DNA from: an uncultured Acetatifactor sp.
Lineage (GTDB): Bacteria > Bacillota > Clostridia > Lachnospirales > Lachnospiraceae
Direction: 5' to 3'
DNA: 64,000 nt
Assembly: GCA_964524555.1 (NCBI GenBank)
Contig: CAZGGA010000008.1
Location: forward strand, 31,607-95,606
The notes beneath the pieces are model-generated. The model ran no database searches. It saw only the letters and a program-made list of their open reading frames with translations, and had not been told where the DNA came from. Positions 51,056 to 63,892 of this stretch are shown in pieces. Numbering within the stretch: the stretch's first letter is position 1; every line of letters begins with the position of its first letter. A program made the position numbers and the translations under genes.

Positions 51056-52510
51056 TTAAAAAATATATTGTTGAAATACATACATCATCACAAAAGAAAA
51101 GTCTTTTTGGGCAATGCTCTCACCTGTATATAATCCCTCTTCCCTAAGATAACGCTCCTCTCCGCTTTTATCAATCAGATAATAGGAAATCTTTCCCACC
51201 TTACTTCCCTCTGTTACAGGTGCCGGCAGGCTTTTCGGACAGTCTAGTTTTGCTATCACATTCTCTCCCTCACTGACCAACAGCCGGATGGGCTCCTCTT
51301 TTTCCTTTCTGACAATAGGAATGCTTACGGAATGATAAGGATTTCCATCTCTTGCGGCGCCGTTTGCCACATAGAGGCTGCCCCATGTCACTTCGGGTGA
51401 AAATTCCCGATATTCATAATGCTTAAGACCATACTCCATAAGTTCTCTGGTATCGCTCCACTTATAAGACTTATTATTGGGCCAGCCGCAGCCCAAAAGC
51501 GCCACAATAAATGTGCGTTCATCCCTGCGAAGCGCTCCCACATAACAATATCCCGCTTTATTAGTAAAACCTGTTTTGCCGCTTAAGGCCCCCTCCATCA
51601 TACCCAGAAAGGAGTTATGATTGTTACAGGTAAAGTTCCTCTTGTTTCGATAAAAACTGTAGGACGCCGTCCTTGTAATTTCCAGAAATAAATCCCGCTT
51701 GGAGGACTCGGTAATGCAGTATGCCATTATCCTCGCAAGGTCAGTCGCCGTAGTGTGATGCTCTTTCAAGGCGCTCTCCCCATTGTCAAATGTTACAGTC
51801 TCTGTGGCATCCAATCCGTTTGGCGTAATAAAATAGGTATCCTGACACCCAAGCGTATCCGCCTTCCCATTCATCAAGGCTGCAAACGCCGCCACCGCCT
51901 GTTTGCTCTCCTCCACCGTAAAATCCGCCGTGTCTTTATTTTTCAGTTCCTCTGACAAATACCTCTTGCCCACATACTCTGCAAGCGCCACTGCAGAATC
52001 ATTGTGTGATTCTAACATCAGGGAAAACAATAGTTCTCTCACTTGGTACTGTTCCCCTTTTTTTATGTACAGCTTTACCTTGGGCATGCTGGCTGCATAG
52101 GAGGAAACTGTCAGCATCTCGCCTAAATCCTCCACATGCTCCAGCACCGTGATACAGGTCATGATTTTAGTAGTGCTGGCCATGGCAAGTGCCGTATCTT
52201 CATTTTTGCCATAAAGCACCCTGCCGGAATCCGCATCTATCAATACTGCCGCTGTTGCATATAAGGACAGCTCCTCCTGCGTCTGTCCCTGTACTGCTGC
52301 CCATTCATTGGTCCGTGCTGACCCATTGTCAAGCATCACCGTCCATTTACTCCTCTGCACTACTCCATTGTCAGGCTCCATCGTCCATTTACTTCTCTGC
52401 ACCGTCGCACTGATGAGCACCGCTAATGCACATATCCCTGCTGCCCCAAAAAGCCCGCAAAAAAAGCCCCTTATTGTCCTCTGCCCAAACATCCTGATTC
52501 GCATTCTCAT
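51056..52510 (-). CDS. D-alanyl-D-alanine carboxypeptidase (S11, PBP5-like) with an N-terminal anchor and repeat
   Basis: SxxK motif ASTTK, SHN-type motif ESHND, and KTGFT (KTG box). Confidence 0.8.
   Translation of the reverse strand: MRMRIRMFGQRTIRGFFCGLFGAAGICALAVLISATVQRSKWTMEPDNGVVQRSKWTVMLDNGSARTNEWAAVQGQTQEELSLYATAAVLIDADSGRVLYGKNEDTALAMASTTKIMTCITVLEHVEDLGEMLTVSSYAASMPKVKLYIKKGEQYQVRELLFSLMLESHNDSAVALAEYVGKRYLSEELKNKDTADFTVEESKQAVAAFAALMNGKADTLGCQDTYFITPNGLDATETVTFDNGESALKEHHTTATDLARIMAYCITESSKRDLFLEITRTASYSFYRNKRNFTCNNHNSFLGMMEGALSGKTGFTNKAGYCYVGALRRDERTFIVALLGCGWPNNKSYKWSDTRELMEYGLKHYEYREFSPEVTWGSLYVANGAARDGNPYHSVSIPIVRKEKEEPIRLLVSEGENVIAKLDCPKSLPAPVTEGSKVGKISYYLIDKSGEERYLREEGLYTGESIAQKDFSFVMMYVFQQYIF
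52323..52406 (-). repeat. In-frame 42-bp tandem duplication in the 5-prime part of dac
   Basis: Units 52323..52364 and 52365..52406 share 33 of 42 positions by my count. They encode (V)VQRSKWT(M/V).(P/L)DNG twice. Confidence 0.8.
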
Positions 52511-54915: not shown

Positions 54916-56091
54916 TTAATTTACCAGAAAATATCCCCAGACCTTTTTCAGATAATCCCGGTAAACTGCTTTCTCCACGCTTCCGGCATACAGAATGGGA
55001 GTGCTTCCGATTTCAACACCGTTTAGCAGATAACGCGCCCTTCCAGCTTCCATGCCTTCCTTAATGGGAGCTTGCACCGCCTCCGGCAGTTCCACAACTT
55101 TCTCCACCTGCTCCAGACTACTTCCTTGAATATCCAGATACCTGAATTCTCCCTCATACCTGATGGGAACCTGTTCCTTCACGCCGCCTTCCACCTTCAG
55201 CGGGTTTAAAACCTCCGTATTATCGTCTATGTATAGCTTGCATACGCTGAAACCATAATTCAACAGCGCCTGTGCATCTCCGAAACGCACCTTTGTGTCC
55301 GGCGCTCCCATAACCACTGCAATTAAATCAATATTATCCCTGCTGGCGGTGGCGGAAAGACAGAACTTTGCCTTGCTGGTGGAGCCCGTCTTTAACCCCG
55401 TTGCCCATTGATACTGCTTTAAAAGCTTGTTGGTGCTGTTCAGAGTAAAGATACTGCTTCCCTGCCTGGTCTCATGGGTAATATCTTCCATCCATATCTG
55501 AGTGTACTCAAAGACCTCCGGATATTTAACGGTAAGCTCTCTTGACATGATTGCCACATCTTTTGCAGAAGAATAATGATTATCCGAGTCGGTAAGTCCG
55601 CAGCAGTCCTCAAAATGAGTGTCCTCCATGCCAAGCTCTGCCGCTTTCTTGTTCATCAGCTCCACAAAGGCATCCTCACTGCCTGCAATATGTTCTGCTA
55701 CAGCCACACTAGCATCATTGCCTGAGGCAACTGCAATGCATTTTATCATGGTATCCAGAGTTTGAATCTCCCCTTCCGCCAAAAAAACCTGTGAGCCTCC
55801 CATGGAACTTGCATGTTCACTGACCAACACCTTGTCATCCAATTTGATGTTGCCTGCCTTTAGCTTTTCAAAAGTCAAAAGCAGGGTCATAATTTTGGTA
55901 ATGCTTGCAGGACTGCGCCTCTGTGTAGAATTCTGCTCATAAATAACCTGTCCTGTGGATGCCTCAATCAAAATCACCGATGGCGAAGTAATGCCCATTT
56001 CTGCCCTTACGGGCAGTGCATTCCCGAACAGCATTGTAATACACAGCAGTACACTGCAAAGAAAAGCTTCTGTTCTCTTAACAAATTTCAT
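54916..56091 (-). CDS. D-alanyl-D-alanine carboxypeptidase (DacB/DacF-like, S11)
   Basis: Signal peptide from MKFVKRTEAF (ATG 56091), then SITK, SGND and KTG motifs. Confidence 0.85.
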   Translation of the reverse strand: MKFVKRTEAFLCSVLLCITMLFGNALPVRAEMGITSPSVILIEASTGQVIYEQNSTQRRSPASITKIMTLLLTFEKLKAGNIKLDDKVLVSEHASSMGGSQVFLAEGEIQTLDTMIKCIAVASGNDASVAVAEHIAGSEDAFVELMNKKAAELGMEDTHFEDCCGLTDSDNHYSSAKDVAIMSRELTVKYPEVFEYTQIWMEDITHETRQGSSIFTLNSTNKLLKQYQWATGLKTGSTSKAKFCLSATASRDNIDLIAVVMGAPDTKVRFGDAQALLNYGFSVCKLYIDDNTEVLNPLKVEGGVKEQVPIRYEGEFRYLDIQGSSLEQVEKVVELPEAVQAPIKEGMEAGRARYLLNGVEIGSTPILYAGSVEKAVYRDYLKKVWGYFLVN

Positions 56092-56182
56092 ATAGAAAAT
56101 GCCACACTCCCATGCTCTTTCTCTATTACAGAATATGGAAGTATGACATTTAATATGCATAATAATAACCTAAAACTGTGGC

Positions 56183-56942: not shown

Positions 56943-57119
56943 TTAGTTATATTTCCGCTTTCTTGCTGCCTCAGACTTCTTTTTGCGCTTTACGCTTGGT
57001 TTCTCGTAATGCTCTCTCTTACGAATCTCCTGCTGAATACCAGCTTTTGCACAGCTTCTTTTGAAGCGGCGCAATGCGCTGTCTAAAGTCTCGTTCTCTT
57101 TTACGATTACATTCGACAT
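56943..57119 (-). CDS. rpsU: 30S ribosomal protein S21
   Basis: Not in the ORF track because it is 58 aa. The reverse strand reads [58 protein letters not shown], a textbook S21 sequence. Confidence 0.9.
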
Positions 57120-57203: not shown

Positions 57204-57231
57204 ATTATACCATATATTTGAAATTCGTCAA
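57204..57231 (-). promoter_or_regulatory. Candidate extended -10 promoter for rpsU
   Basis: On the minus strand: TTGACG (57231..57226), 16-nt spacer ending in TGG, then TATAAT (57209..57204). Confidence 0.45.
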
Positions 57232-57291
57232 CTGCTTTTTTGCAAAATTAGGGAAATTAGGCAAAAACAGCGTCTAGTAGTAAACGCCCCG

Positions 57292-58797
57292 TCAATTCCA
57301 AGATTCCACCGCCTTATTGTAATACTCCATCAAAACCGGCTTCGTGAGACGATTGATTTCCACATCATCATCTATCTCATCCTTTCCGAACCGAAAGAGA
57401 GCTGAAACATTTTCTCTGGTCAGATACTTTGTGTCCACATCAAAGTCCAGATCTTCCGTGAGTTCCCTCCTGCTTGCCATGTTAAATCCCCAATCCCCAA
57501 ATGCGGGAACCTGCAGGTGATAGGCTTTTACATACAGGCCTTCGCTCTTGATGGTTTTATTGATACACCAGAATGCTTTTGCCGCATAATAGGGGCTGGT
57601 GGACTGCACCACCATCACGCCGGTATCCTTCAGGCGGTTTTTGCACATCCGATAAAATATATTGGAATACAGTTTGTTCAGGGATTCACTGTTGGGATCA
57701 GGCAGATCCACAATAATCAGGTCATATTGTTCCTTGGAATCCTCCAGATACTCATATGCGTCCATATTGTAAATATTCAGCTTGTCCGATTCCAAACTGT
57801 TTTGGTTAACAGCAGTGATATTTTGATTGGTGGAACAGATTCGAATCATCTCTGCATCCAGATCCACCAGATCTATTCTTTCCACCTCGTCATATTTCAG
57901 AACTTCGCGAACCGCCATTCCATCCCCGCCCCCCAGAATCAACACATGGCTTCGGCTGTCCAATTCGCTCATGGGAATATGCACCAATGCTTCATGATAA
58001 CGGTATTCATCGGCCGTGGAAAACTGGCAGTTCCCATCAATGTAAAGTCTCACGTCATCCCGATGCTTTGTGAGTACGATTTTTTGATATTCCGTCTGTT
58101 CCATGTAAATAATCTGATCCCTGTACAGACCACCCTCTACGCTCTCCGAGATGTTATCCGCAAACACAATTCCGATGATCATCCCTGACGCAATGAAGAT
58201 GGCAAGAACGCGATAAATCCAGATATGCTTAACCCGCTCTCCAAAGCGCTGCAGAATCAGGATGGCGGCGGTAATATTTAACAATCCACAGAGAAAAGAT
58301 GTCGAAAAAAAGCCCAGATGCGGAAGCAATAGGAGCGGAAAAGCAATGGCTCCCAGCAATCCCCCAATGTAATCAAAACTGAAGATAGAGGATAGGGTCA
58401 CAGACAGGTTCTTCTCGTCCTCTTCAATAATTCTCGTCATAATCGGGATTTCCGCCCCTGCCAGCATACCGATCAGTATAATTTCCAGATACATCACTAC
58501 CACATAATTGGAAATATAAATATTGGACAGGAAAAGCAGCAGGGAGCTTAAGCCCCCCGCCACACCAATACTCAGCTCGATTGTCACAAAGACATTAAAC
58601 AGATTTTTCTTGAAATATCTGGAGATATAGGATCCAAATCCCAATGCCGCCATATAAAGCCCGATGGTTATGGAATACTGCAGAGTGCTGTTTCCCTGAA
58701 GATAGGAACTCACTGCGCTGATGATCAGCTCATAACACATGGAGCACCCTGATATAATCAGAGTGGTCAGCATCAGAAGCCTGTACTTCCTGCTCAT
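57292..58797 (-). CDS. Spermidine-synthase-like aminopropyltransferase fused to an N-terminal ~200-aa polytopic membrane domain
   Basis: About 7 TM segments, followed by a SpeE-like domain (VLILGGGDGMAVREVLKY, DLIIVDLPDP). Confidence 0.8.
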   Translation of the reverse strand: MSRKYRLLMLTTLIISGCSMCYELIISAVSSYLQGNSTLQYSITIGLYMAALGFGSYISRYFKKNLFNVFVTIELSIGVAGGLSSLLLFLSNIYISNYVVVMYLEIILIGMLAGAEIPIMTRIIEEDEKNLSVTLSSIFSFDYIGGLLGAIAFPLLLLPHLGFFSTSFLCGLLNITAAILILQRFGERVKHIWIYRVLAIFIASGMIIGIVFADNISESVEGGLYRDQIIYMEQTEYQKIVLTKHRDDVRLYIDGNCQFSTADEYRYHEALVHIPMSELDSRSHVLILGGGDGMAVREVLKYDEVERIDLVDLDAEMIRICSTNQNITAVNQNSLESDKLNIYNMDAYEYLEDSKEQYDLIIVDLPDPNSESLNKLYSNIFYRMCKNRLKDTGVMVVQSTSPYYAAKAFWCINKTIKSEGLYVKAYHLQVPAFGDWGFNMASRRELTEDLDFDVDTKYLTRENVSALFRFGKDEIDDDVEINRLTKPVLMEYYNKAVESWN

Positions 58798-58825
58798 AAT
58801 AATACCCGTTTCTTTCCTATGGTGT

Positions 58826-59248
58826 TTATTGGATCACACCGCTGACAATAAAGGCAATTCCCACAAAAATACCGAATATCATGATTCCCGCTGCTTCATT
58901 CTTCTCCTTAAGCGCAACGCCGAAATTAAACTTTCTGTTGACAATATCCACAAGAAAATATGCCAATATGAATGTGACAACACCAATTATGGCATAGACT
59001 ACGGTGTCTATCACTCCCGCCAAAAGCTCCATGGCTTCACCAACTCCACCAGAGATGATTGCAGAGCGGATCACAAAGCCAAGACCTGCATAAATTCCCG
59101 CAGACACCCAGCCCACCGCTTTGTTCCCCTCGTTAATCTCCTTCGGGAAATCCACCGGGATTGCCAGATCAATCAGCCAATACCCCAACAGCATCATAAT
59201 CAGTCCGATACAAAAATAAACCCCTGTCTCCATTATAACTGTCAACAT
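58826..59248 (-). CDS. DUF350-family small membrane protein
   Basis: 140 aa, four TM segments, internal duplication typical of DUF350. AGGAG lies 7 nt upstream. Confidence 0.7.
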   Translation of the reverse strand: MLTVIMETGVYFCIGLIMMLLGYWLIDLAIPVDFPKEINEGNKAVGWVSAGIYAGLGFVIRSAIISGGVGEAMELLAGVIDTVVYAIIGVVTFILAYFLVDIVNRKFNFGVALKEKNEAAGIMIFGIFVGIAFIVSGVIQ

Positions 59249-59307
59249 AATTTTTCTCCTTTTCTTAAATTACCAATTTTCCCTTCACTAGTTTTCTTCT
59301 CCCGCAT

Positions 59308-60390
59308 TTATTTACCACTGCTCAATCCACCGCTTGATGATTTCCGGCTGTTGATGCTTGACTGCCGAATGGAGCTGGAATAGCTGTCAAAGTAACCGTT
59401 TCCGATATTGTGAATCGTTGTCCCATTATACATGGAATAGGCCGACGGCGTACCCTTATAAGAAGAGGAATCCGCTGAGTATCCTGAGCTGTAATAATGA
59501 CTTCGGTACCATGTAGAACCGGCGCTTGAGATTCTGTAAGGGGCATTATCCGATGTGTAATTATACTTTCTGTTTGACACTTGAACATATACCTTTTTCT
59601 CTTCGTTCTCCGGATGATACACAAGGCAGTATTCTTTATCAGTCAAAATGGCAATCTCCTGATTATTCGTGTCATCCTTCTGAGTCACCGATTGGGTATT
59701 TCCCTCAATGCCCTGAATGATATCCTTGGCCACATCATCCGTTGTGGCAGATGTCCGATAGGCATATACCGTTGCCTTCTGCTTCTCATTGCCGGACAGG
59801 GAAGTTTCATACACATATTTCCCAGACTCCTTCAGATAGTTGGCAATTCTCTTGTTTGCGTTCAGATTTGCAACAATAATGTTTCCCATTATCCCTAAGA
59901 ATGGAAAACCAAAGGCAAAAATCAGCAGCACCGCCGTCAGATTTATTCTCTTTATCACAGACGGCTTTTCATATCCGGTCTCCACAATATCGCTTTTTTC
60001 AATGTACTCCCCCGTGGAAAATTCGGTTCCATCGCTCCAAATCTCAACGGAAAGCGTGTGATCCTCTGATGCATCCTCATATTCTACAAAAGAAGCTCTC
60101 TCCCCCGGGTCCACATCCACATCCCCGCTGCTGAAGCGGACCACCTGAGTCCCCTCGTCCACCTTATGCCATTCCGGACCAATCTGCCCCCTGATATTGT
60201 TCGCAGGCCAAGAAATGGAATATTCGTCATAAAACTCATCACAGGAAAGCCAGCATTCTCCTCTTGCTGTTTTTAACCGATACTCAGTCCAGAATTTTCC
60301 GGCATCTTGTATGTTTTCGTATTGGATGTACCCGATAACCTTTCCCGACAAGCCGTTTATATTAAGCAGCGTACCTACATCATAAAACAT
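59308..60390 (-). CDS. DUF4178-like N-terminal domain, one TM, then a C-terminal domain ending in a Ser/Tyr/Gly-rich tail
   Basis: N-terminus G.....G....V.G..QYE......W.EY.L (NINGLSGKVIGYIQYENIQDAGKFWTEYRLKT) as I remember for DUF4178. TM at about residues 150-175. GGAGG lies 6 nt upstream. Confidence 0.6.
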   Translation of the reverse strand: MFYDVGTLLNINGLSGKVIGYIQYENIQDAGKFWTEYRLKTARGECWLSCDEFYDEYSISWPANNIRGQIGPEWHKVDEGTQVVRFSSGDVDVDPGERASFVEYEDASEDHTLSVEIWSDGTEFSTGEYIEKSDIVETGYEKPSVIKRINLTAVLLIFAFGFPFLGIMGNIIVANLNANKRIANYLKESGKYVYETSLSGNEKQKATVYAYRTSATTDDVAKDIIQGIEGNTQSVTQKDDTNNQEIAILTDKEYCLVYHPENEEKKVYVQVSNRKYNYTSDNAPYRISSAGSTWYRSHYYSSGYSADSSSYKGTPSAYSMYNGTTIHNIGNGYFDSYSSSIRQSSINSRKSSSGGLSSGK

Positions 60391-60429
60391 ATTCCGCCTC
60401 CATCTTTCCTCTCAAAACATCCTAACAGT

Positions 60430-60786
60430 TTAACTGCGCCCTGATGCCGAATGACCGCTGATATCGCGCTGTATGGTTTGAACCCGGATGTTCCTTGAGC
60501 CAAACAAATCCTTCAACACCTGTGCAATTCCATCCGCCACTTCGTCCCTGCAGGAAAAAATATCGATTGCCGCATATTGGTATTCCGGCCATGTATGTAT
60601 CGAAAAGTGGGAAGTGGAAATAATGGCAAAATAAGTGATTCCAATGGGTTCAAATTTATGAATACATTCTTCCACAATCTGTGCGCCCACATATCCGATT
60701 GCTTTATGGGCGGCCTCCCTCACTGCTTCCGTGTCATCAATCATCTCCGAACAGTCATATAAATCCGCGATAAGCTGTACTGCCAT
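60430..60786 (-). CDS. speH: Class-1 SpeH/SpeD-like pyruvoyl-dependent decarboxylase proenzyme (AdoMetDC family)
   Basis: HKFEPIGITYFAIISTSHFSIHTWPEYQYAAIDIFSC aligns to the B. subtilis SpeD processing region (..ISESHLTIHSFPE..). The Ser and His are kept, but the residue before Ser is Thr. Confidence 0.75.
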   Translation of the reverse strand: MAVQLIADLYDCSEMIDDTEAVREAAHKAIGYVGAQIVEECIHKFEPIGITYFAIISTSHFSIHTWPEYQYAAIDIFSCRDEVADGIAQVLKDLFGSRNIRVQTIQRDISGHSASGRS

Positions 60787-60823
60787 TTTTATACCCCAAT
60801 CATTCACTTCTACAAACTACTTG

Positions 60824-61216
60824 TCAATCCTTTCTGCCAAATAATATGCCAGTCAGCTTGTGAAGCATCCCGTAATCGGACTTCGACTCCGTCCTGTCCC
60901 CGCCGCATTTTGTACAACGGAAGATATCCGCACGGTTATAGGAACCGCAATAATCGCACAGCCAATCCGGTGCATTTGTGGTTTTCGCCTTTTCCTCCTG
61001 TGTCAAAGTCGCTGCATCCAAATCTTCGGGCAGATAAAAAAGAGTGTCAATCCCCCGGGGTCTCCCACACGACATACAGGCATCATATCTTGCCTTGATT
61101 GCTTTTCGCCCGCAATATGCGCAGTCCCACAAGCCTTCTATTCTTCTCTCTTCCATCTGTCCCGCTCTGACCGCCGCCGGCAATATACTCCCTGCCGCCG
61201 GCATTTTCCTTTCCAT
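60824..61216 (-). CDS. Small protein with two zinc-ribbon / RanBP2-type zinc-finger motifs
   Basis: WDCAYCGRKAIKARYDACMSCG and WLCDYCGSYNRADIFRCTKCG. The second fits W-x-C-x2-C-x3-N-x6-C-x2-C exactly. The start codon is uncertain (61216, 61204 or 61156). Confidence 0.6.
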   Translation of the reverse strand: MERKMPAAGSILPAAVRAGQMEERRIEGLWDCAYCGRKAIKARYDACMSCGRPRGIDTLFYLPEDLDAATLTQEEKAKTTNAPDWLCDYCGSYNRADIFRCTKCGGDRTESKSDYGMLHKLTGILFGRKD

Positions 61217-61237: not shown

Positions 61238-63892
61238 TTACGCAAGCTGTCCTTCCAGCACTTTCCCAGCCTCTGCAATCGCTGCGGGAATGCCTGCAGG
61301 ATTCTTGCCGCCGGCCTGCGCCATATTAGGTCTGCCGCCGCCTCCGCCGCCTACCAATGCCGCAATACCCTTAATCAGGTTGCCGGCGTGTGCGCCTTGC
61401 TTCACAGCGCCCTCCGTAGCCATGGCAATCATATTTACCTTGCCGTCCTGATTGGATAAGAGCACTACCACGCCTTCCTGCAGTTTTTCTTTTAATTGGT
61501 CTCCCAAATTCCTCAGCTCGTTCATATCCACGCCGTTCACGCTTACAGCTAACAGCTTCACGCCCTTTACTTCCGTGACCTGATCCATTACATCTCCCAA
61601 GGCATCCTTCGCCGCCTTGCTCTTCAAAGACTCATTTTCGGAAGAAAGCGCCTTCATCTCCGCCATAATATGCCCGCATTTTTCTATCAGGGAACCCGGA
61701 GTAGTTTTTAAAATTCTGCTTGCCTCCTCCAAGGTCTTTTCCAAATCCCTGTAATATGCGGTCACGCCATTTCCTGTCAGAGCTTCAATCCTGCGGATTC
61801 CAGCGGCCACGCCATTCTCTGAAAGAATCTTGAAATTGGAAATAACGCCCGTATTTTTAACATGGGTTCCTCCGCATAATTCCACGGAAAAATCTCCCAT
61901 TTTCACCACTCTTACTTCTTCGCCATACTTCTCGCCAAAGAGCGCCATAGCACCTGTTTTCTTTGCTTCCTCAATTCCCATGATCTGTGTCACCACAGGC
62001 AGATTCTCCGCAATCTTTTCATTGACGATATCTTCCACTTTTCTCAGCTCTTCCGCCGTCATGGGAGCAAAATGGCTGAAGTCAAATCGCAGTCTTTCGC
62101 CGTCCACATAAGAACCGCTCTGTTCCACATGGGTACCCAGAACTTCCCTGAGAGCTTTTTGCAGCAAATGGGTTGCGCTGTGGTTCTTACAGGTATCCGC
62201 TCTGTTATCCGCATCCACTGTAAGCGTAACAACATCTCCGACTTTAATCATACCGCTTGTGACAGTTCCCACATGTCCTACCTTGCCGCCCAAAAGCTTA
62301 ATGGTGTCTTTGACGGCAAAACTTCCGTCCTTTGTGGTAATCACGCCGGTATCGGCATTCTGTCCACCCATGGTGGCATAGAACGGAGTCTCCTCAACGA
62401 TAATGGTGCCAACCTGTCCATCTGTCAATGCATCCACAAGCTCTGTATCAGTGGTCAGCACAGTTACTTTGGATTCATGCTGCAGGCGGTCATATCCTAC
62501 AAATTTAGAGGTTATATTCACATCAATGGACTCATATATGGTGGCATCCGCTCCCATATAATTGGTTGTCTTACGGGCTTTTCTCGCCTTTTCTCTCTGC
62601 TCTGTCATGCATGCGTCAAATCCCGCCTGATCTATGGAAAATCCTTTCTCCTCCAGAATCTCCAAGGTCAGATCTACAGGGAATCCATAGGTATCATAAA
62701 GCTTAAACACATTTTCGCCGGAGAGGCACTTCTCGCCGGAAGCCTTCATTTCCTCTTCCATCTCTCCAAGGATGCTTAATCCCTGATCGATGGTCTTATC
62801 AAATTTATCCTCCTCCTGAGTCAACACATTCAGAATAAAATCCTTCTTCTCCTCAAGCTCGGGATAACCGTCCTTACACTCTGCAATCACCGTCTGGCTT
62901 AACTTGGCCAAAAACTTTCCGTCTATGCCGAGAAGCCTGCCATGTCTTGCAGCCCGGCGAATCAGACGGCGCAGCACATAGCCCCTTCCCTCGTTAGAGG
63001 GCAGAATGCCGTCGCTGATCATAAAGGTGGAAGAACGGATATGGTCTGTAATCAGTCTGATGGATACATCCTTTGCCTCATCCTCCTGATATGTTACCCC
63101 GGCAATCTCACAAATCCTGTCACGGATAGCCTTCATGGTATCCACATCAAACACGGAATCCACATCCTGCACCACTACTGCCAGACGCTCCAGCCCCATG
63201 CCAGTATCAATATTTTTCTGGGAAAGTTCTGTATAATTACCCTTTCCGTCATTATCAAACTGTGTGAATACATTGTTCCACACTTCCATAAAACGGTCGC
63301 AATCGCAGCCCACCTTACAGTCAGGCTTACCGCAGCCATATTTCTCACCCCTGTCATAATAAATCTCGGAACAGGGACCGCAGGGACCTGCGCCATGCTC
63401 CCAGAAATTATCACATTTGCCGTTCTCGTCACGGTAAAAGCGGGTAATTTTTTCCCCGGGAACACCTATCTCCTTAGTCCAGATATCATATGCCTCATCA
63501 TCTTCACAATAAATGGAGGGATAGAGCCTCTCCGGCTCCATACCTACTACCTCGGTAAGGAATTCCCAGCTCCATGCAATGGCCTCATGTTTAAAATAAT
63601 CTCCGAAAGAAAAATTCCCCAGCATCTCAAAGAAAGTAAGATGTCTGGCAGTCTTACCCACATTCTCAATATCTCCCGTGCGCACACATTTCTGACAAGT
63701 GGTAACCCTGCGCCTTGGAGGGATTTCCTGTCCTGTAAAATAGGGTTTCAGGGGTGCCATACCGGAATTGATAATCAACAGGCTGTTATCATTATGGGGC
63801 ACCAAAGAAAAGCTCTTCATTTTCAGATGATTCTTGCTCTCAAAAAAATCCAAATACATTCTTCTTAATTCGTTTACGCCATATTTCTGCAT
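61238..63892 (-). CDS. alaS: Alanine--tRNA ligase
   Basis: 884 aa, full-length AlaRS (class II motifs, HxxxH editing domain, C-terminal DHHA1-like GGGGGRP). Confidence 0.97.
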   Translation of the reverse strand: MQKYGVNELRRMYLDFFESKNHLKMKSFSLVPHNDNSLLIINSGMAPLKPYFTGQEIPPRRRVTTCQKCVRTGDIENVGKTARHLTFFEMLGNFSFGDYFKHEAIAWSWEFLTEVVGMEPERLYPSIYCEDDEAYDIWTKEIGVPGEKITRFYRDENGKCDNFWEHGAGPCGPCSEIYYDRGEKYGCGKPDCKVGCDCDRFMEVWNNVFTQFDNDGKGNYTELSQKNIDTGMGLERLAVVVQDVDSVFDVDTMKAIRDRICEIAGVTYQEDEAKDVSIRLITDHIRSSTFMISDGILPSNEGRGYVLRRLIRRAARHGRLLGIDGKFLAKLSQTVIAECKDGYPELEEKKDFILNVLTQEEDKFDKTIDQGLSILGEMEEEMKASGEKCLSGENVFKLYDTYGFPVDLTLEILEEKGFSIDQAGFDACMTEQREKARKARKTTNYMGADATIYESIDVNITSKFVGYDRLQHESKVTVLTTDTELVDALTDGQVGTIIVEETPFYATMGGQNADTGVITTKDGSFAVKDTIKLLGGKVGHVGTVTSGMIKVGDVVTLTVDADNRADTCKNHSATHLLQKALREVLGTHVEQSGSYVDGERLRFDFSHFAPMTAEELRKVEDIVNEKIAENLPVVTQIMGIEEAKKTGAMALFGEKYGEEVRVVKMGDFSVELCGGTHVKNTGVISNFKILSENGVAAGIRRIEALTGNGVTAYYRDLEKTLEEASRILKTTPGSLIEKCGHIMAEMKALSSENESLKSKAAKDALGDVMDQVTEVKGVKLLAVSVNGVDMNELRNLGDQLKEKLQEGVVVLLSNQDGKVNMIAMATEGAVKQGAHAGNLIKGIAALVGGGGGGRPNMAQAGGKNPAGIPAAIAEAGKVLEGQLA

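Follow-up and report, generated by a model that had tools for sequence, protein, structure and literature searches.

The window analyzed here, a stretch of 64,000 nucleotides from an uncultured Acetatifactor sp. of the Lachnospiraceae (assembly GCA_964524555.1, contig CAZGGA010000008.1, positions 31,607 to 95,606 of the forward strand), carries five genes between alaS and rpsU, all on the minus strand. In order, these encode a double zinc-ribbon protein (ZnR), a SpeH-like decarboxylase of S-adenosylmethionine (AdoMet), a protein with a DUF4178 domain, a DUF350 membrane protein, and TM-SpeE, in which a transmembrane (TM) domain precedes a SpeE-like aminopropyltransferase. We tentatively read this set as a self-contained cassette for envelope-directed aminopropylation rather than a bulk spermidine pathway, and give that reading slightly less than an even chance. 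A more specific version, which we consider possible but on the doubtful side, holds that TM-SpeE is the first bacterial aminopropyltransferase on the outer face of the membrane, with a dimerized half of a major facilitator superfamily (MFS) transporter, perhaps together with DUF350, exporting decarboxylated AdoMet (dcAdoMet), and with an amine of the envelope being modified. The cassette is an already described, functionally unsolved cluster; because its core is already in Ravi et al. 2024 and Li et al. 2019, the present find is a rediscovery in a gut-type variant. What is new is that the membrane domain of TM-SpeE is modelled as an MFS half followed by a seventh helix (TM7) of low conservation; that the charge bias across its homologues points to an outside SpeE domain; that many environmental loci include an amine oxidase with a twin-arginine (Tat) signal; that the stand-alone ZnR is confined to Lachnospiraceae, in contrast to the ribbon fused to environmental DUF4178 proteins; and that the gut-type DUF4178 protein has a conserved, predicted outer domain with an SSGGGxSxGK end.

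By their residues, SpeH and the SpeE domain both look active. SpeH (60430..60807), a class-1b pyruvoyl AdoMet decarboxylase (AdoMetDC) of the SpeH/SpeD type whose most likely start is the ATG at 60786 (118 aa), matches PF02675 (AdoMet_dc, E=1.6e-32) and TIGR03330 (96 bits, cutoff 75.65), and has no signal peptide. In an alignment with the T. maritima AdoMetDC 1TLU, the processing and catalytic Ser, His, and Cys, which are listed as essential for that enzyme (PMC10407285), are conserved, and by this comparison SpeH has every residue needed to make dcAdoMet. The catalytic domain of TM-SpeE (501 aa in all; aa 215-501 at 57292..58155, including the stop codon) matches PF01564 (Spermine_synth, E=5.8e-41) over aa 265-445. 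With the NF002956 equivalog, "polyamine aminopropyltransferase," the protein scores 603.6 bits and so passes the cutoff of 472; it also reaches 45.6 bits with NF037959, "fused MFS/spermidine synthase" (cutoff 40), but it falls below the cutoffs of the canonical soluble SpeE models TIGR00417 (161 versus 249.55) and NF002010 (186.6 versus 260). The domain aligns to B. subtilis SpeE 1IY9 and retains the acidic ribose and adenine ligands and the D-x-x-D/E-P amine-binding loop. Furthermore, YHE, GGGDG, D312, D346, and D364-L-P-D367-P are invariant in an alignment (A3) across Bacillota, Bacteroidota, and Synergistota, at 48-61% identity. Judged from these alignments, TM-SpeE keeps all of the dcAdoMet-binding and catalytic motifs.

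The arrangement that holds these two enzymes together is widespread. A scan of one genome per species found 46 loci, and the order ZnR-SpeH-DUF4178-DUF350-TM-SpeE is kept in about 38 of them. An exhaustive search with the DUF4178 protein gave 187 representative clusters, among whose named members are Bacteroidales, Paludibacteraceae, Enterococcus, and Synergistaceae. All of the retrieved gene contexts show the DUF4178 gene next to a TM-SpeE gene, with SpeH and DUF350 variably present. A metagenome scan seeded on TM-SpeE alone yielded 80 loci, whose sources include soil, water, and gut and whose TM-SpeE shows 40-84% identity, and the flanks were searched with our own hidden Markov models. Directly upstream of TM-SpeE in the 35 loci that could be evaluated, each having at least 4 kb of upstream sequence, a DUF350 gene is found in 34 and a DUF4178 gene in 32; SpeH is present in 20, and the core genes lie on the same strand and in the same order as in the window. 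The environmental DUF350 protein is often a 70-aa single repeat; that of the window (58826..59248; YjfL family, 140 aa), 28 nt upstream of TM-SpeE, matches the full-length PF03994 model (E=5.6e-27) and has four hydrophobic segments, corresponding to two 2-TM repeats. In addition, of 8,000 candidates scored in a profile search with the membrane domain of TM-SpeE, at least 1,958 are homologues.

Taken together, these counts make DUF350 and DUF4178 near-obligate partners of TM-SpeE across phyla, and the general unit is the four genes SpeH-DUF4178-DUF350-TM-SpeE. An earlier note on this DNA had described a five-gene module and had stated that its combination of DUF350, DUF4178, and a membrane SpeE recurs in very distant phyla. 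The order of five holds for the roughly 38 Lachnospiraceae loci and is confined to that family, but the general unit has four genes and ZnR is lineage-specific; the wide recurrence is confirmed, with the module placed by named records in Bacillota, Bacteroidota, and Synergistota and with Acidobacteriota, Bacteroidota, and Pseudomonadota among the source names of the membrane-domain homologues. Because the order is shared by so many Lachnospiraceae loci and the core by most of the environmental ones, the recurrence of the same arrangement is far beyond chance. The TM-SpeE of Lachnospiraceae is 59-61% identical to the Bacteroidales and Paludibacteraceae copies, a similarity across phyla which suggests that the gut-type cassette has been exchanged between them.

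The partner counts also bear on whether the two enzymes simply make a polyamine. An ordinary membrane-anchored pathway, in which SpeH and TM-SpeE produce spermidine or another free polyamine from a diamine, perhaps with coupled uptake or export, and DUF350, DUF4178, and ZnR are accessory or unrelated, would agree with the equivalog label, with the adjacent speH, and with the full set of canonical motifs, including the D-x-x-D-P amine-binding loop; diamines, moreover, are abundant in the gut. However, such a pathway leaves the linkage of DUF350 and DUF4178 to TM-SpeE in 32-34 of 35 loci without a reason, and no diamine-supplying gene is present among the 30 other window open reading frames (ORFs) scanned, which agrees with the claim in the earlier note that no other polyamine genes are nearby. 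In addition, three loci (L067:4738-5586, L068:4738-5586, and L069:4737-5585) encode a canonical soluble SpeE of 282 aa, 2.4 kb upstream of a gut-type DUF4178-DUF350-TM-SpeE set; this side-by-side occurrence argues against redundancy of the two enzymes. Finally, a statement in PMC12803844, citing Li et al. 2019, has it that bacterial fusions of a membrane protein with an aminopropyltransferase (APT)-like domain take no part in making spermidine or spermine. We therefore regard the ordinary pathway as very unlikely. The proposal in the earlier note of aminopropyl transfer at the membrane or envelope, rather than bulk spermidine synthesis, fits that statement, the topology predicted for TM-SpeE, and the evidence from its partners.

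If the envelope is the target, the side of the membrane on which the SpeE domain resides becomes central, and here the membrane domain (aa 1-214; 58156..58797) is informative. The earlier note had recognized a polytopic fusion, correctly, and had put its size at about 200 aa; the domain comprises seven helices over about 214 aa. An AlphaFold2 (AF2) model of residues 1-228, built on 119 database sequences, has seven long helices, with a predicted local distance difference test score (pLDDT) of 93.4 and a predicted TM-score (pTM) of 0.89. Foldseek comparison with the PDB returned almost only MFS transporters (probability 1.0, query-normalized TM-score [TMq] 0.5-0.63), among them G6PT1, POT/PepT, NorA, FLVCR, LtaA, and VMAT2. 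An MFS transporter has two six-helix bundles (12 TM helices), and the matches cover about 190-210 residues (target-normalized TM-score [TMt] 0.2-0.38), which is one of the two; because they span a single bundle, the domain is best described as an MFS half plus a seventh helix. E23, E74, E116, and D142 are invariant and lie inside helices 1, 3, 4, and 5, a pattern that resembles those of cation-coupled MFS exporters. Among 121 homologues, the N-terminus and loops L2, L4, and L6 have on average 2.4-2.6 lysines plus arginines (K+R), and L1, L3, and L5 have 0.0-0.5. TM7 is hydrophobic in 95% of the sequences (mean Kyte-Doolittle value 2.07) and is the least conserved helix (0.39 versus 0.56-0.72); its flanks have 2.6 K+R before it, and 0.59 K+R and 2.36 D+E after it. 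Because an MFS bundle starts and ends in the cytoplasm, because TM7 is hydrophobic, and because the charges are biased in this way, we predict that the SpeE domain sits outside, at the outer membrane face. As a possible marker of this placement, a conserved disulfide was looked for in the domain; however, C321 and C411 do not vary together in conservation, and the check informs neither way.

The same fold also lends itself to a different arrangement, in which the catalytic domain stays in the cytoplasm and uses the dcAdoMet there to aminopropylate a cytoplasmic or inner-leaflet amine, while the MFS half, with DUF350, exports or flips the cationic product in the manner of MprF, to be oxidized outside in environmental species. 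dcAdoMet and SpeH, which lacks a signal peptide, are cytoplasmic, the fold with its embedded acidic residues resembles those of the cation exporters NorA, VMAT2, and LmrP and of the lipid flippase LtaA, and fusions of a synthase with a flippase, such as MprF, provide a precedent. However, the family has seven hydrophobic helices, the positive-inside pattern of which is both very strong and consistent, and the last of them is hydrophobic, poorly conserved, and followed by acidic residues. Moreover, since both ends of an MFS half are normally cytoplasmic, the domain after helix 7 should be brought across by that helix. On this balance we judge product export by a cytoplasmic enzyme to be somewhat unlikely.

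Environmental loci provide a further indication of where the amine is handled. In 29 of the 80, a gene for a FAD amine oxidase (PF01593) of about 510-560 aa overlaps the 3' end of the TM-SpeE gene (e.g., L126:9445-11076 and L110:9485-11014, in the set L053-L132), and about 23 of the 29 oxidases carry a Tat signal, [ST]RRxF[LI], near the N-terminus. Because of this signal, the amine of the system would be handled outside the cytoplasm in the organisms that have the oxidase. It should be noted that the oxidase requires merely that the product end up outside, and so it also agrees with an enzyme that works inside and a membrane domain that exports. Farther downstream of the oxidase, 11 environmental loci encode a polytopic membrane protein of 361 aa that belongs to no Pfam family.

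The outward placement of the SpeE domain is also supported by the DUF4178 partner, which always has a predicted extracytoplasmic domain, and by the lipoprotein partners that Ravi et al. describe (PMC11237479). In the window this protein consists of a beta-rich domain (aa 1-140; 59971..60390), a single TM helix (aa 151-180; 59851..59940) that is a helix in the AF2 model and hydrophobic in the alignment, and a conserved C-terminal alpha/beta domain with a tail (aa 181-360; 59308..59850, including the stop codon). PF13785 matches aa 5-131 (E=1.8e-13), and the domain is acidic and aromatic-rich. The AF2 model (mean pLDDT 88.4) shows residues 7-140 as all-beta with pLDDT >90, followed by the helix at 151-180, an alpha/beta C-domain at 192-279, and a Ser/Tyr/Gly-rich tail whose last 10 residues have pLDDT <50. 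Since there is no signal peptide, the beta domain is predicted to be cytoplasmic and the C-domain extracytoplasmic. The latter is highly conserved and matches no Pfam family, even at E<=10. Its tail (59308-59400) follows the pattern ...S[IV]RQxS..R.SSGGGxSxGK-COOH, with the window copy ending in ...SSGGLSSGK, and the terminal Gly-Lys is present in 95 of 105 family representatives and in all 63 of the locus proteins. The GK tail may be a site of modification or of recognition. Foldseek comparison with the PDB gave weak matches of the model to MucB/RseB/VioE (E about 3e-4, TM-score about 0.1) and, over short stretches, to the lipoproteins PA1624 and LppA; a fold assignment from these was dropped on account of the low TM-scores.

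Environmental DUF4178 proteins are built differently, as a zinc ribbon, DUF4178, a TM helix, a domain of about 130 aa, and a second TM helix, and their loci often add a second, soluble ZnR-DUF4178 protein. In nearly all of these loci the ribbon (CxxC-x15-19-CxxC) is fused to the N-terminus of DUF4178. In Lachnospiraceae it is the separate ZnR gene (maximal ORF of 130 aa, 60824..61216), whose product has only sub-threshold Pfam matches (DZR, RanBP-type) and contains two CxxC...CxxC zinc ribbons (CAYC-x11-CMSC and CDYC-x10-CTKC). Its 58 homologues are all at least 58% identical and typically 110 aa long; because this is the length of nearly all of them, the start is most likely M21 (ATG at 61156; 110 aa). 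The few homologue records that name a source are from Lachnospiraceae, and with just these 58 close relatives ZnR is taken to be a lineage-specific addition. ZnR and DUF4178 thus form a link of the Rosetta-stone type, separate genes in Lachnospiraceae and a fusion elsewhere. The link is architectural, and direct homology is weakly supported: comparison of the stand-alone ZnR with the environmental fused ribbons by hhalign reached a probability of 76%, in an alignment of 32 columns that consists largely of the Cys pattern, and homology was not accepted on that basis. The conserved principle is a cytoplasmic ZnR plus DUF4178 unit joined through the membrane to an outer domain. Three Lachnospiraceae loci (L036:8001-9415, L038:8001-9405, and L040:8001-9408) have adjacent DUF4178 and ZnR genes with no SpeH, DUF350, or SpeE within 8 kb; the pair is flanked by genes for a PAP2 phosphatase and a DegT/DnrJ aminotransferase, with two lipoprotein-like genes upstream, which suggests that it can partner other envelope enzymes.

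These features can be assembled into a model of envelope-directed aminopropylation. SpeH would make dcAdoMet in the cytoplasm. TM-SpeE would dimerize through its SpeE domains, as SpeE enzymes do, so that the two MFS halves of the dimer could form a transporter-like cavity lined with acidic residues. With the N-terminus and the even-numbered loops predicted to be cytoplasmic and helix 7 carrying the catalytic domain outside, the cavity, possibly with DUF350, would pass the dicationic dcAdoMet outward to that domain, which would then aminopropylate an extracytoplasmic amine other than free putrescine. Candidate acceptors are an envelope polymer, a lipid head group such as that of an outer-leaflet amino-lipid, and a protein lysine. 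The DUF4178 protein, with its zinc ribbon, could be a trans-membrane regulatory or scaffolding subunit that couples the state of the cytoplasm to the outer catalytic site. For the gut-type cassette, one speculative candidate acceptor is the near-invariant C-terminal Lys of the SSGGGxSxGK tail, by analogy with silaffins: the silaffin lysines of diatoms bear long aminopropyl chains, the synthesis of which takes place in a lumenal, and thus topologically outside, compartment. Such a role for the tail would not be general, because the environmental versions do not have it.

Several points weigh against this model. dcAdoMet is made in the cytoplasm, where an enzyme that uses it would be expected, and no bacterial transferase for AdoMet-derived groups is known to us to act beyond the cytoplasmic membrane. 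The transport of dcAdoMet is inferred, the acceptors are candidates only, and the role given to DUF4178 and ZnR is drawn from their architecture alone, the DUF4178 model having found no convincing fold match in the PDB. The topology is predicted, and the catalytic domain would be cytoplasmic should helix 7 fail to cross the membrane. In addition, the window SpeH has Thr rather than Glu just before the pyruvoyl Ser (xTSH); Thr (or Lys, Asn, or Ser) is found at this position in gut-type proteins, and Glu (xESH) in environmental ones.

The association of these genes with PspA in other lineages has led to yet another possibility, namely that they form a signalling or membrane-stress module, in which DUF4178, DUF350, and ZnR would sense the state of the polyamines or of the envelope and adjust membrane properties together with PspA-type proteins encoded elsewhere, the aminopropylated product being the signal and not a structural modification. 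The same genes occur in operons with the PspA-CesT/Tir dyad, for which monitoring of polyamine levels or of aminopropylation has been proposed (PMC11237479), and the DUF350 gene of E. coli adjoins one for a PspA-family protein. Nine environmental loci (e.g., L084:457-1443) have, upstream of SpeH, a gene for a Band_7_1/SPFH protein that ends in a zinc ribbon at its C-terminus, a further zinc-ribbon partner in this neighbourhood, and in our interpretation the conserved Trp, Tyr, Asp, and Glu of DUF4178 are typical of polyamine-binding sites. However, there are no PspA, Band-7, or regulator genes in the module or among the window ORFs scanned, DNA-binding and kinase domains are missing from all five proteins, and a signalling role leaves the fully conserved catalytic machinery unexplained. 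This explanation, which does not exclude the others, seems quite unlikely to us. The envelope-stress response suggested in the earlier note likewise rests on the PspA association in other lineages (PMC11237479) and finds no counterpart in the module or the scanned window ORFs.

The structure of the locus is otherwise simple. The domain assignments of the earlier note for SpeH, DUF4178, DUF350, and SpeE are supported by Pfam and NCBIfam profiles, and the ribbons of ZnR by their Cys motifs. As it had also reported, five ORFs on one strand fill the interval from alaS (61238..63892, minus strand), the upstream neighbour outside the module, to rpsU (56943-57119, minus strand), and the checked positions agree. 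From alaS through TM-SpeE the gaps between maximal ORFs are 21, 16, 39, 59, and 28 nt, and the Shine-Dalgarno sequences GGAGG and AAGGAG are indeed seen 5' of the DUF4178 and DUF350 genes. The absence of a terminator before the rpsU region likewise stands, given that the sole intergenic terminator-like hairpin, a weak one with an 8-pair stem, 3 GC pairs, and a T-rich tail, lies directly 3' of the SpeE stop codon (57269..57288, minus strand); it is the probable 3' end of the module. Beyond it, rpsU is a separate transcription unit, marked by a strong sigma-70-type promoter with an extended -10 (57204..57231, minus strand; TTGACG-16-TATAAT, 11 of 12 matches, TG present). A GC-rich hairpin of 12 pairs with a T-rich tail is found at 58536-58563, inside the TM-SpeE coding region at helix 3; it is probably a chance match, because the terminator scan gave 11 sites against 6.0 +/- 2.6 expected. 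Searches with Rfam revealed no riboswitch or leader RNA in the window from 56 to 64 kb at E<=0.1 and no leader RNA 5' of the module in 8 related loci, and a regulatory RNA of this kind was therefore rejected.

The linkage to alaS on which the earlier note had remarked does not extend beyond close relatives. Apart from the window, only the two closest genomes (L001 and L003) have the module between alaS and rpsU, and across 39 loci the immediate neighbours belong to about 35 different families per side. Because the flanks differ in about 35 of 39 species, the alaS linkage is incidental and was rejected as a functional clue; the module behaves like a movable cassette, and its position in the window genome is unremarkable. 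Downstream, less than 6 kb from the cassette, lie two Peptidase_S11 (D-alanyl-D-alanine carboxypeptidase) paralogues (51056-52510 and 54916-56160), with scpA, scpB, and a metallophosphoesterase gene between them. This pair is ordinary cell-wall housekeeping and is not kept beside the cassette in other species. Among the 46 loci, L046 is a divergent copy without ZnR. All 46 are from Lachnospiraceae, except for one short contig (L043, CAZGGR010000045.1, 2.6 kb) in a metagenome-assembled genome labelled Akkermansia. This contig encodes ZnR-SpeH-DUF4178 at 63-79% identity to the window and is probably a binning contamination rather than an occurrence in Verrucomicrobiota.

The cassette is encoded in very many bacteria, including common gut Lachnospiraceae and Bacteroidales, and published accounts list M. 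tuberculosis among its carriers. Its product has been a puzzle since 2019, and the published work, in the statement quoted above from PMC12803844, holds that it is not a polyamine pathway. The remark in the earlier note that it knew of no assigned function for these genes is fair, although the cluster as such had been described. If the SpeE domain is outside, acceptors need be sought only among envelope polymers, outer-leaflet lipids, and exported proteins, an unrecognized export route for an AdoMet-derived cofactor must exist, and the result would be a new cationic modification of the envelope, with likely effects on antimicrobial-peptide resistance, stress tolerance, and host interaction. 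The ZnR/DUF4178 link and the conserved GK tail offer concrete experimental handles, through pull-downs and mass spectrometry. The find is moderately interesting as such and would be highly so if the outward aminopropyltransferase is true.

Comparison with known systems places the cassette at the meeting point of several of them. The canonical SpeD/SpeE enzymes of B. subtilis and T. maritima have folds homologous to those of the two enzymes here and share their catalytic motifs. However, canonical SpeE is soluble, cytoplasmic, and putrescine-using and has no DUF350 or DUF4178 partner, whereas TM-SpeE has seven TM helices and is predicted to face outward. With MprF, NorA, VMAT2, and LtaA there is in common the coupling of a transporter-type membrane domain to a charge-modifying transferase, or an MFS fold with embedded acidic residues. 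Here TM-SpeE differs in having one six-helix bundle rather than two, so that the relation to the MFS exporters is one of fold only, and it is unlike MprF in its domain order and in the predicted side of its catalytic domain. The only non-bacterial homologues of the bacterial fusions are fungal fusions of a membrane protein with an APT-like domain (PMC12803844); the APT-like domain of P. oryzae, when expressed in E. coli, yielded neither spermidine nor spermine (PMC12803844). The fungal and silaffin systems differ from the cassette in being eukaryotic and in having no known DUF350 or DUF4178 partners.

In E. coli, yjfIJKLMC is annotated as encoding the PspA-family YjfJ, the DUF350 protein YjfL, the DUF1190 protein YjfM, and the peptide-spermidine ligase YjfC, which bears out the comparison with this cluster made in the earlier note. 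YjfC is described in PMC11762307, after Pederick et al. 2023, as an ATP-grasp peptide-spermidine ligase. Thus, here too a DUF350 protein stands beside a polyamine-conjugating enzyme, and DUF350 is the only part shared with the window; the enzyme is a ligase and not an aminopropyltransferase, YjfJ is present, and SpeH, SpeE, and DUF4178 are absent. The YjfM partner, a membrane-anchored protein or lipoprotein, has a Ser/Gly/Arg-rich C-terminal tail similar in composition to that of the window DUF4178 protein.

The closest relatives are the two published clusters. Li and colleagues are said to have found thousands of genomes with a class-1b AdoMetDC and an MFS::SpdSyn-like fusion, in which the decarboxylases were reportedly active, spermidine was absent, and DUF350 was clustered. 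For other members of this cluster, it has been published, as summarized in PMC12803844, that spermidine is not produced and that an E. coli speE mutant is not complemented by the fusion. All three elements of the cluster of Li et al. 2019 (Biochem J 476:2579), that is, the class-1b AdoMetDC, the MFS-like::SpdSyn-like fusion, and the adjacent DUF350, are present in the window; the texts that cite that paper do not, in the passages concerned, attribute to it DUF4178, the double ZnR, the outer domain with its GK tail, or the outward topology. Ravi et al. 2024 (mSystems, PMC11237479) described operons with 7TM::SpeE, YjfL/DUF350, DUF4178, a lipoprotein, and the CesT/Tir-PspA dyad, as well as related DUF350 operons with an ATP-grasp ligase, an AdoMetDC, and a polyamine oxidase, and proposed either the monitoring of polyamines or the aminopropylation of other substrates. 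Their group 2 (Shewanella AAN56744-AAN56747) has 7TM-SpeE, YjfL/DUF350, and DUF4178 in one operon, as in the window. In contrast to that group, the window module has neither the CesT/Tir-PspA dyad nor the RHH regulator, and apparently no Ctha_1186 lipoprotein. Pfam finds no PspA/IM30 or CesT match in its five proteins, and no PspA is present among the 30 further window ORFs scanned. No separate lipoprotein gene lies within the module, and the outer C-terminal domain of its DUF4178 protein, a part that might be related to Ctha_1186 or DUF4247, matches no Pfam family. Instead, the module adds SpeH and the zinc-ribbon protein, and its DUF4178 protein has a TM helix and an outer domain of its own.

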